23,543 nucleotides of DNA, from the IMG/VR virus record IMGVR_UViG_2734482776_000003; one strand, given 5' to 3'. The position numbers were made by a program. This document shows, piece after piece, positions 15,001 through 18,000 of this stretch (its first letter is position 1; every line of letters starts with the position of its first letter). The DNA comes from a virus. Taxonomy: Duplodnaviria > Heunggongvirae > Uroviricota > Caudoviricetes.

Positions 15001-18000
15001 TATCATCCGTTGCCCTCATTATCATTATTCACCACCAGTCGGGGTGGTGGTGGCACCGCAAAACGGTTAGCCGCTTTTTTCGCCGCGTCACCTTTTGCCG
15101 ATTTTTTACCGGCATCCCCTTTTTTGTGGTGCGTGAACTGCGCCAGCTTATAAGCCGCATCCAGCGCCAGCCTGGGGTCGGTATTAATGTTCTCCACCAG
15201 AAGACGCCCCATCGCTTTCACCGGATCGGGAAGACCGTCCTCCATATACTCAATACCAGGAGATATCACCACGGGCGGTGGCATCTCCGGATTTGTTTCG
15301 TCCGGCTGTGGTATTGCAGCCGCCTCACGGCGACGGGGTTTATCCTCCTGCTCTGATTTTTTCTGCCGGTAAACAGGAACCTCATCCACCTCCACCGTCT
15401 CGCACTGTTTACGGGCTATAAACGCAAGCACCTCCGGATCTTTTGCCAGCTGCGAGCCTTTAACCCTGGCTGTCTTCGCCGAATAACCGGCGGCAATGGC
15501 TGACGCTGTTTTGTTTTTCCCGGACATGAGCGCCAGCGCAAATTTTCGTTTTTGCGTTGTCAGCACAGCCTCCTCCCGGGTCCAGAACGCACTCAGCCGG
15601 GTATGGTTCAGCCCATTTTTCCCGGCGTCTCATGCCGCAAATGTTAACTGCTGCCTGGTTAACATTTGCTGAAAAAGCCAGTTAACATTTTTTCCGCGCA
15701 ACAAACTGAATAATAAAGATAAAAACCGCAAAAATGCCCGGACAGCCAGTTAACATGTTAACTGCCCTGAAACGGGAATTTTTTCTCTGCGTGAGAGGGG
15801 GCGCGGTGTCCGGAGCGATCGTTTTTTACGCCGAATGATACCCCCCCCGGTCGGGTTACAGTCCGATGATGTCGTCCGCTCTGCCACTACCTCCGGACAC
15901 CTCCGGCAGCGTCGGGTCCGGCATACCACCCGCCGCTTCACGAGCAGACTTTTGTCGATGGCATTCGGTACAGAGCGTCCAGAGATTCGTCTCCTCATTA
16001 CCACCACCGAACTGAAGTGCAATTCGGTGATCGAGTTCACTGTCACAGAGGTCAACCACACGACCACAGAGACAGCACTGCCCGGCATCCCTGAGCCAGA
16101 TATGACGCTTGAGGGAAACACGTGCACTGCCACTGACACGACGCTGTTCACCCTTCAGAATATTCACCCGTCGGGTATTCAGTGTTTTGATTCTGCTCTG
16201 GAGTGTACGAAGCTCAGCCATGTAAAATCCCCGTCATATGGCAATCAGTAAAGGAAATAAATATGTCATCGAAAAACCGGACCCGCAGAACCACAACCCG
16301 CAATATCCGTTTCCCCAATCACATGATTGAACAGATCAACATCGCCCTTGAGCATAAAGGGTCCGGTAACTTTTCAGCGTGGGTTATTGAAGCCTGCAGG
16401 AGAAGGCTGGCAACAGATGCAACGCACCTGCGCCCGGCCAGCATGACAAATAACGAGAAATGAACGTTCGGTTACAGGAGCAGGTACCCACTGTCCTCCA
16501 ACAATATTTCATCTTCATACCCGGCGGAACAAGACTTACCCAGCCGGGATGTACAGAATAACAACAGAGTGATAATTAATTTCTGATGAAATAATCAGGG
16601 TGCAGAAGGACTAAAGATAAACGTTTTCTTCACGCCTTTACGCGGCCTGTCCTTCTCAAATCGCCATTTTGCCATCGCCTTTACAACCTGCTCATCAAAC
16701 AGATGGTGCGGCTCTGAACGGATAAACTCAATTCGGGTGACAGTACCATCAGCACCAATATCAAACTTCACATCAACCCGTCCCTTTATATAATTTGCCG
16801 CTGCATAGGCCGGATATTGTGGTAATGCCTTAACCAACTGTCGGGGCATATCTGTTTTATGTTGCGTACAGCCCATAACCAGAGAAGACAACAAAATAAT
16901 TAACGGAAGATTTCTTTTCATTTTCATTCCCGGCACAGATAAGAATAAGTCTTATTCTAACAATGCCACCCTGTCGGCCATCAATCCTCTGCTTAATGGC
17001 AACGACAATTATCCGACTTAAATCACAAATCAGACACATGACATAACAGGTCATGCGAGGTAACACATCGTCCGGTTTCTTCCACCATCGCACCGGACCA
17101 GCGACCATGAGGGGACAACGCCGCGCTCCGTTAACGCGGTAAACCCCGGTGTGTATCGTTTTTGATTATCCCCGCACACTCGCGCAGAGGAGTCTCCCTG
17201 TCGGGCTGCGGTCTCTGTTAATGAGGGAATACAGCGACGATACGGCGCATCCGCAAAACTTAGTTCAGGCACTGAGTGCGGATATAGTCCTGTGCCCCTT
17301 CCAGCTGCTTCTGCATTGTCATCAACCGTTCTCTGAGGATGAAATAATCCCGTTCAGCGGTGTCTGCCAGTCGGGGGCCGGTTGCATTATCCACGCCGGA
17401 GGTGCCGGTGGCTTCACGCACGGTACCGGAGCAGGTGGCGTTGATCCGCAGGCGCTTACGACCAGCGGCAATATCAGCACGCAGAGTTTCATTTTCAGCT
17501 CTCGCATCGGCTAATTCCCTCGAGTATTTTGCATCGAGCGCAGCAACATCGCGCTGGCGCACCTGCATATCAGTAATGGTTGCGTTTGCCAGCTCCAGCT
17601 CTCTGGCTTTTTTATCACGCTGCGCTTTGTAGGTGATGGCGTTATCGCGGTAATGATTCAGCCCCAGACTAAGCGCACCACAGACCACCAGCAGAATAAC
17701 GGTAAACGCGGAAAGCATTCGGTTTATGCTCACCCCAGCATCCCCGACGAAGATAACATCATCCAGCCCATGGAAAGAAAAAGAGCAACCAGCATTAGTG
17801 AAAATGAAATGCCGACGATTACACAGAGGATCTTCGCCAGCATTATGAGTTTGTCTGACATGTTTAATCCTCCCTTCACGCTTTCAACGCAATGACCAGT
17901 TTTGCCAGCCCATACAGCATCGGAGACACAGCGATACCGACCGCCACCCACTTAATAGCAAAAGCCTGTGCTCTGCTGATGTCATCAGTTACTGGCGCTT

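Follow-up and report, generated by a model that had tools for sequence, protein, structure and literature searches.

In Escherichia coli, the energy transducer TonB engages its receptors through a C-terminal domain (residues 150-239; PDB 1u07, 2gsk and 2grx) whose beta3 strand pairs with the TonB box of the receptor (PMC11658791). According to PMC9841981, iron import through TonB-dependent transporters is inhibited when the periplasmic TonB domain is overexpressed (citing Howard 2001), and phi80 infects and colicins kill less well in the presence of a TonB-box pentapeptide (citing Tuckman 1992); phages themselves encode lipoproteins (that is, Llp and Cor) that act on the periplasmic face of TonB-dependent transporters (PMC9586334; preprint 10.64898/2026.03.26.714494). 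Here we analyse a 23,543-nucleotide stretch of Caudoviricetes DNA (IMG/VR record IMGVR_UViG_2734482776_000003; the whole stretch is hereafter called the window), which is a lambdoid E. coli prophage, and describe in it a gene (16595-16921, minus strand; stop codon TGA at 16595-16597) that encodes a 108-amino-acid lipoprotein precursor with a TonB C-terminal domain (TonB_C) as its only domain. The gene belongs to what is well supported as a distinct Enterobacterales family of TonB_C lipoproteins (~110 amino acids) that are encoded on chromosomes and, repeatedly, after the lysis genes of temperate phages.

In its setting, the gene resembles lambda bor and other late-region morons (that is, single cargo genes between the lysis and packaging genes, perhaps with promoters of their own), and Bor is, in addition, an outer-membrane lipoprotein. 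In the same phage group, stx1 is a cargo gene repressed by iron and Fur. To neither Bor nor the stx1 product does the TonB_C lipoprotein have any sequence relationship, and its predicted activity is different from theirs. With E. coli TonB it shares the fold and the beta3 edge strand, yet it has no link to ExbB/ExbD, would be anchored by lipid at the opposite membrane and falls in a separate clade. It also recalls the periplasmic TonB fragments credited to Howard 2001 in PMC9841981, in that these put a free TonB C-terminal domain in the periplasm, where that of the phage protein is predicted to lie; those fragments, however, were laboratory-made, soluble and overexpressed, whereas the phage gene is natural and selected, has its own regulatory region and encodes a product predicted to be lipid-anchored. 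Llp (T5) and Cor (T1, phi80, N15 and HK022) are likewise small phage lipoproteins, and they work on TonB-dependent transporters from the periplasmic side of the outer membrane, although their fold and sequence are unrelated to those of the TonB_C lipoprotein. Llp jams the FhuA plug allosterically without touching the TonB box (PMC9586334), whereas the phage TonB_C protein would target the TonB boxes themselves; and whereas Llp and Cor are receptor-specific and encoded beside the receptor-binding gene, the TonB_C protein would be generic and is encoded after the lysis genes.

The assignment of the domain draws on profile, sequence and structure comparisons. Residues 26-104 (16610-16846, minus strand) align without gaps to residues 153-231 of E. 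coli TonB in a phmmer search of the PDB (E ~1e-16; phage residue i corresponds to TonB residue i+127), the solved structures aligned including BtuB-bound and FhuA-bound ones, and identity to the E. coli TonB C-terminal domain is 37-38% over ~81-83 residues, again ungapped. Both Pfam PF03544 (TonB_C; 56 bits against a cut-off of 24.6, E=5.5e-15) and TIGR01352 (56.5 bits against 27.1) match above their curated cut-offs, and the only families matched by the protein are TonB_C, TonB_2 and phrog_1267. An AlphaFold2 model, built as a single chain from 29 family sequences, has a mean predicted local distance difference test score (pLDDT) of 84 that exceeds 90 across the TonB_C domain, with predicted helices at residues 38-42 and 76-84 and strands at 47-55, 60-70 and 94-103, the last of these being the beta3 edge strand, predicted at high confidence. 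In Foldseek searches, the model superimposes on 1u07, 2gsk_B and 2grx_C, including chains of the BtuB:TonB and FhuA:TonB complexes, with a root-mean-square deviation of 1.1-1.2 A and TM-scores of 0.88-0.93 normalised to the target. All matches at E <= 0.001 are C-terminal domains of TonB or of TonB homologues (FusB and TonB2), and a weaker tail contains TolA domain III together with unrelated chains; the BFVD viral structure library gave no match at E <= 1e-3. At the residue level, equivalents of the YP motif, G174, G186, P198, F202, W213, E216 and P220 of TonB are kept, and the residues implicated genetically in contacts between TonB and the TonB box are retained in part (K31=R158, Q35=Q162, Y36=Y163 and P37=P164). 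It is well supported that the mature protein is, behind a tether of ~8-13 residues, a complete TonB C-terminal domain, with the correct fold in the model.

What precedes the domain is unlike TonB. The N terminus, MKRNLPLIILLSSLVMGC, is a predicted cleavable lipoprotein signal (M1-C18; 16868-16921, minus strand) composed of an n-region (MKRN), an h-region (LPLIILLSSL) and a lipobox (VMGC; L-V-M-G-C with the preceding residue): K2 and R3 are basic, L5-L14 are hydrophobic and V15-M16-G17-C18 fits a pattern of the PROSITE PS51257 type, [LVI][ASTVIM][GAS]C. The lipobox cysteine is invariant in all 29 aligned family members. By the +2 rule of E. coli, we infer sorting to the outer membrane, since the residue that follows the cysteine is threonine here and no Asp occurs at +2 among the 29 aligned members. 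Neither the signal-anchor helix of TonB with its SxxxH motif nor a proline-rich periplasm-spanning spacer is present in the 108 residues, and profiles for full-length TonB equivalogs (NCBIfam, PRK10819) score at best 73 bits, far under their cut-off of 315. Because it lacks both the signal-anchor helix (SxxxH) and the proline-rich rod, the phage protein has no link to ExbB/ExbD. An earlier note on this DNA, made from the sequence alone, had described the product as a lipoprotein signal fused directly to a lone TonB_C domain without the membrane anchor or the spacer of a real TonB, and had suggested that a profile search and a structure prediction be made; the Pfam, NCBIfam and PDB matches, the AlphaFold2 model and its close superposition on solved TonB domains, and the equivalog scores agree with that description throughout.

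The open reading frame (ORF) list gives the gene as 16595-16936 on the minus strand, but the ATG at 16921 (MKRNLPL...) is most likely the true start, judging from the sequence comparisons: we favour it because it is the choice of the Prokaryotic Genome Annotation Pipeline (PGAP) in RefSeq (EDL933, WP_000828070.1) and because an upstream ATG at 16927 reads ATA in the allele of phage 21 (pairwise alignment). A Shine-Dalgarno-like GGGAA (16927-16931, minus strand) lies 5 nucleotides before the ATG at 16921, and the arrangement AGGAA-N5-ATG is kept in the phage-21 allele. A further ORF that overlaps the upstream part of the gene (16857-17108; annotated as hypothetical in phage JLK-2012) was rejected as a gene: alleles differ in the upstream region by indels of 17 and 13 nucleotides, and the ORF therefore has no conserved reading frame.

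Exhaustive and profile searches returned family proteins of ~100-135 amino acids with the same architecture, 29 of which were aligned. Near-identical DNA is found in phages JLK-2012 and Lys8385Vzw, in several Stx1a-converting phages and, always in the chromosome, in 417 of 5426 complete E. coli genomes (~8%), including that of O157:H7 EDL933, where the annotation is only 'TonB family protein'; the exact protein of the window occurs on at least 1000 contigs. In a scan of one genome per species, members were present in Raoultella, Klebsiella, Serratia, Erwinia, Pantoea and Pseudescherichia. These chromosomal relatives have ordinary neighbourhoods with no phage genes nearby (for example, the Raoultella gene adjoins lacZ/lacI/mlrA and the Serratia gene lies between ycgN and dsbB-nhaB-fadR). 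A second scan of IMG/VR gave 221 phage-borne relatives in a Klebsiella-type, a 60%-identity and a Serratia-type group, and those examined are located directly after holin, endolysin and spanin genes and before the terminase genes. This post-lysis slot is common to phage 21, JLK-2012 and the Klebsiella-type and Serratia-type prophages, with alleles that are only 35-70% identical.

Comparison of alleles provides good support for the view that the gene is selected and functional and that the family is under purifying selection. The phage-21 allele, which is annotated as a 'TonB C-terminal domain protein' and lies between bor and cos, is 71% identical to that of the window, and the ratio of nonsynonymous to synonymous substitution rates (dN/dS) for the pair is 0.12 at a dS of ~1.5. 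All 70 copies of the window type (variant A) recovered from IMG/VR are intact and include eight alleles that depart from the window protein by 1-3 residues. When the domain sequences are placed in a neighbour-joining tree, a clade with 100% bootstrap unites the true TonB domains, and the phage proteins fall outside it, within the lipoprotein family, which carries the signature S-E/T-P-x-H-L-F-D...KWRFE..KP where TonB has AKPANMFERE...RWRYEPGKP. Database copies of the phage-21 type (variant B) present a separate picture, many being frameshifted or fused after about codon 66-95 (P0010, P0012, P0013, P0015, P0018, P0019, P0021 and P0030, one such cluster having 130 members), which could be assembly error or real decay. 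We also noted a 152-residue protein, P0155, with the lipobox LAGC, a long linker and a C-terminal domain that lies within the true-TonB clade; its sequence suggests that a TonB domain acquired a lipid anchor on a second, separate occasion.

The position of the gene between Rz/Rz1 and the terminase genes (the moron slot) had been recognised from the outset, and alignment with phage vB_EcoS-569R3, which is otherwise collinear with the window phage and is without the TonB_C gene, shows that the slot holds a discrete single-gene cassette of 604 base pairs (bp; 16474-17077). The cassette contains the TonB_C gene alone with ~155 bp upstream and ~120 bp downstream of it, its boundaries being ambiguous within a shared CGGTT. 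As the difference from vB_EcoS-569R3 is a clean 604-bp insertion, the cassette is either there whole or not at all, and so fits the strict definition of a moron. It is flanked by an imperfect 9-bp direct repeat, seen in the sequence and the junction comparison, with a left copy CGTTCGGTT (16465-16473, plus strand) and a right copy CGTCCGGTT (17069-17077, plus strand) that are identical at 8 of 9 positions; this repeat may have arisen as a target duplication, or it may have supplied the microhomology for an illegitimate insertion. A terminator scan called a terminator-like hairpin between Rz and the TonB_C gene, where the cassette has its 5' edge (17035-17057, minus strand). Other sequence stands in its place in phage 21 and in 7 of the 70 variant-A contexts, so the hairpin is not conserved as part of the cassette. 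No Rfam family was found at the cassette locus at either gathering or permissive thresholds. Between the Rz stop codon and the cassette, a stretch of ~170 bp (17078-17250, minus strand) shows 85-95% conservation across lambdoid phages, whether or not they carry the cassette, and is thus more conserved than the cassette itself. An ORF at 17051-17272, most of which lies in the backbone common to cassette-less phages, matches phrog_6954 ('Rz-like spanin', E=1.3e-16).

Upstream of the gene, a repeat search found a perfect 8+1+8 palindrome, AGAATAAG-T-CTTATTCT (16942-16958), a candidate operator that is located 21-37 nucleotides before the start codon, is unique in the window (0.02 matches expected by chance) and is intact in 65 of 70 variant-A copies; in phage 21 its right arm is deleted. 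The palindrome overlaps both a weak Fur-box-like 19-mer, GATAAGAATAAGTCTTATT (16938-16956, plus strand; 13 of 19 positions matching the consensus), and a candidate extended -10 element, TGTTAGAAT (16954-16962, minus strand), noted by inspection. Here and in the relatives, Fur boxes were called by matching to the consensus or to a position weight matrix (PWM) built from the Fur-like sites of the chromosomal relatives. By this family PWM, the window site scores 11.7 (training sites, 15.6-24.9) and ranks 5 of 23525 positions, with a shuffle p of 0.0175 for the upstream region of the cassette. The relatives present clearer sites: 10 of 13 chromosomal loci have 14-17 of 19 matches to Fur within ~80 nucleotides of the start, scores that random windows of the same loci reach <=4% of the time (<=1% for 9 of the 10), and two of the loci contain a perfect 7-1-7 element, TGATAAT-T-ATTATCA. 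Phage-borne alleles of the other groups reach 14-16 of 19, so that 15 of 20 distinct alleles in total have a match of at least 14/19 just upstream of the gene (within ~80 nucleotides of the start). When the upstream regions are aligned, the window palindrome takes the position of the relatives' Fur boxes, directly after a TGnTAGnAT element that resembles an extended -10, and in the relatives, too, a similar TGnTAGnAT is followed by the Fur box. The suggestion in the earlier note that the palindrome resembles a Fur box thus stands in part: the palindrome is real and aligned with strong boxes in relatives, but the resemblance itself is weak and is lost in phage 21. Our reading of these alignments is that Fur control may be ancestral to the family, eroded or altered in the window allele and lost in that of phage 21, and a link of the window gene itself to Fur and iron is supported only indirectly, through its relatives. 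A second Fur-like 19-mer, CAGAGTGATAATTAATTTC (16565-16583, plus strand; 13/19), lies in the cassette 3' of the stop codon and is the second-best site of the window by PWM.

By analogy with the periplasmic TonB fragments and with Llp and Cor, we tentatively propose that the lipoprotein competes with TonB and so blunts the entry of TonB-dependent phages and colicins, a function to which we give somewhat less than an even chance. After processing by Lsp and Lgt and sorting by the Lol system, the protein would reside in the inner leaflet of the outer membrane and face the periplasm, where its exposed beta3 edge and conserved (P)QYP segment could take up TonB-box strands by beta-augmentation in the manner of TonB. 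It may bind either TonB-dependent transporters or, on group B colicins that enter the cell, the TonB boxes that these carry. Because the lipoprotein cannot pull (that is, it transduces no force), its binding would amount to competition with the TonB of the host, and the processes blunted might include those by which T1/phi80-type phages adsorb irreversibly and by which group B colicins, siderophore-microcins and albomycin are taken up. Fur control, whose predicted sites are clear in relatives and eroded or uncertain here, would switch the gene on when iron starvation derepresses the receptors and the cell is most exposed; during lytic growth, the gene would be transcribed in any case because it lies on the late-operon strand. 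We find more doubtful, though worth stating, the broader version of this proposal, in which the family would constitute a Fur-switched, broad-spectrum immunity by TonB-box decoys (mimicry of the host energy transducer directed against TonB-dependent phages, group B colicins and siderophore-microcins) that is spread as a lysogenic-conversion gene by temperate phages of E. coli (including Stx1 phages and the classical phage 21), Klebsiella and Serratia. In full-text searches of the literature, we found no functional study of the protein or its family and no description of it as an exclusion protein, in line with the earlier note, whose author did not recognise it as one.

Several observations weigh against a decoy. 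Two of the residues by which TonB contacts its box are changed: Q160 is replaced by leucine (L33), at a position that is variable across the family, and R166 by a tyrosine that is conserved across it. Six other sites in the window match the Fur consensus as well as the upstream one does (13/19), so that this site is not significant by itself, and the Fur-like site is half-deleted, and so lost, in the phage-21 allele. A strict scan found no consensus sigma-70 promoter on the gene strand and folding of the 3' flank gave no terminator downstream of the gene (z = -1.4), such that expression in the lysogen depends on the candidate promoter. The PADLOC defence models do not match the lipoprotein, and the gene does not adjoin a receptor-binding gene, unlike llp and cor. 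Moreover, the relatives include ordinary chromosomal genes that, from their Fur boxes, appear to be induced by iron starvation, a condition under which it would be costly to do nothing but inhibit TonB-dependent uptake; such relatives weaken a purely anti-phage reading and make a part in iron uptake conceivable. Expression linked to Fur would suit a shield that goes up once the receptors are derepressed, but would suit an iron-uptake accessory at least as naturally.

Such an accessory would be a positive or regulatory modulator of TonB-dependent transport under iron starvation, carried by the prophage as a fitness or virulence gene rather than for defence. It might keep TonB boxes or incoming substrates at the outer membrane, pass them on to TonB, or save limiting TonB from being tied up by idle receptors. 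We judge this role unlikely, but it is the strongest rival of the decoy. Most relatives, among them chromosomal ones with housekeeping neighbours, have strong Fur boxes upstream, which is the regulation expected of iron-acquisition genes, and the cassette occurs on Stx1a phages, which already carry the Fur-regulated stx1. TonB-like C-terminal domains can, in addition, bind substrates, as FusB binds ferredoxin (PDB 9hi3, among the fold matches; PMC7593965). Against this, a protein without an ExbBD-coupled anchor cannot energise transport, no TonB-dependent transporter or other iron gene lies beside any family member at the loci examined, and the only experimental precedent that we found for a free periplasmic TonB domain is inhibition (PMC9841981). 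Fur control also bears on a quite different and, in our estimate, improbable function, in which the TonB-like domain would bind peptidoglycan or another envelope component and stabilise the outer membrane as a conversion factor of the Bor or Pal type: such control is not expected of a structural tether. Although the predicted outer-membrane lipoprotein occupies the bor slot of lambda and adjoins bor in phage 21, and TolA domain III is among its distant fold relatives, no peptidoglycan-binding motif or family was matched (Pfam and NCBIfam) and conservation falls on the residues of the TonB core.

Database labels point to two further possibilities, both of which we consider very improbable. The full-length match to phrog_1267 (E=2.6e-42) brings with it the PHROGs label 'Rz-like spanin', and the phage-borne gene does always lie directly after spanin genes on the late strand, as a lysis accessory might. 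The window, however, already has a complete Rz/Rz1 pair, and the phage-21, Klebsiella-type and Serratia-type phages each have a proline-rich o-spanin of their own (a separate o-spanin was seen in each examined phage that carries a relative and has an upstream lysis cassette). Relatives occur, moreover, as lone chromosomal genes, a collinear phage lives without the gene, and the product is a globular TonB domain with no C-terminal transmembrane domain rather than a short proline-rich o-spanin. We have therefore rejected the label, which, in view of the separate proline-rich o-spanins in those phages, most likely reflects a misannotation prompted by where the gene lies. Other names ('Partial tonB-like membrane protein' and 'TonB fragment') imply a non-functional remnant, that is, a tonB pseudogene that lost its N-terminal part and was caught in the prophage, an origin that the earlier note had named as fatal to its proposal and that we regard as the least credible of all. 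As far as sequence data can show, it is ruled out by the separation of the family from the fully supported clade of true TonB domains, by the low dN/dS, by the absence of broken copies among the 70 checked and by the gain of a conserved lipoprotein signal with its invariant cysteine.

The remainder of the locus is that of a phage late region. On the minus strand, the order is lysozyme, Rz with Rz1 embedded in it, the TonB_C gene, a convergent DUF3950 gene, an HNH endonuclease, the small and large terminase subunits (TerS and TerL) and a capsid-protease fusion. Rz (i-spanin) is encoded at 17260-17733 (minus strand; PF03245, E=5e-50) and Rz1 (o-spanin) at 17322-17507 (minus strand; PF06085, E=1.7e-21). 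The DUF3950 (YlcI/YnfO) gene (16203-16463, plus strand; PF13132) is present in the cassette-less phage and is thus part of the backbone and not of the cassette; its small product resembles ribbon-helix-helix DNA binders. Upstream of the lysis genes, 20045-22009 (minus strand) encodes a 654-residue protein that combines DUF1737, a SASA carbohydrate esterase and DUF6645 and is of the NanS-p type of enterohaemorrhagic E. coli prophages. Four tandem copies of the small RNA family STnc100 (RF02076; 119-142 bits against a gathering threshold of 47) lie at 22237-23216 (minus strand), upstream of the late region.

In summary, the gene was already visible in databases under generic or wrong names ('TonB family protein' and 'Rz-like spanin'), and what the present analysis adds to the earlier note is the boundaries of the cassette, the recognition of the family and of how widely it occurs, the finding that it is separate from true TonB, and the strong association of its relatives with Fur boxes. 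If the decoy proposal is true, the protein would be the first natural stand-alone copy of the TonB docking domain used by a phage or host, and would give control over who uses TonB-dependent gates, as a generic equivalent of Llp and Cor, which are receptor-specific. It would then bear on host range in phage therapy, on competition through colicins and microcins in the iron-poor inflamed gut, and on the uptake of siderophore-antibiotics in Shiga-toxin-producing E. coli. Even if the protein is instead a helper of iron uptake, it still holds that Enterobacterales and their prophages have an unstudied and apparently Fur-regulated family of TonB-domain proteins predicted to carry a lipid anchor, and the family represents a concrete and cheaply testable addition to the TonB field.

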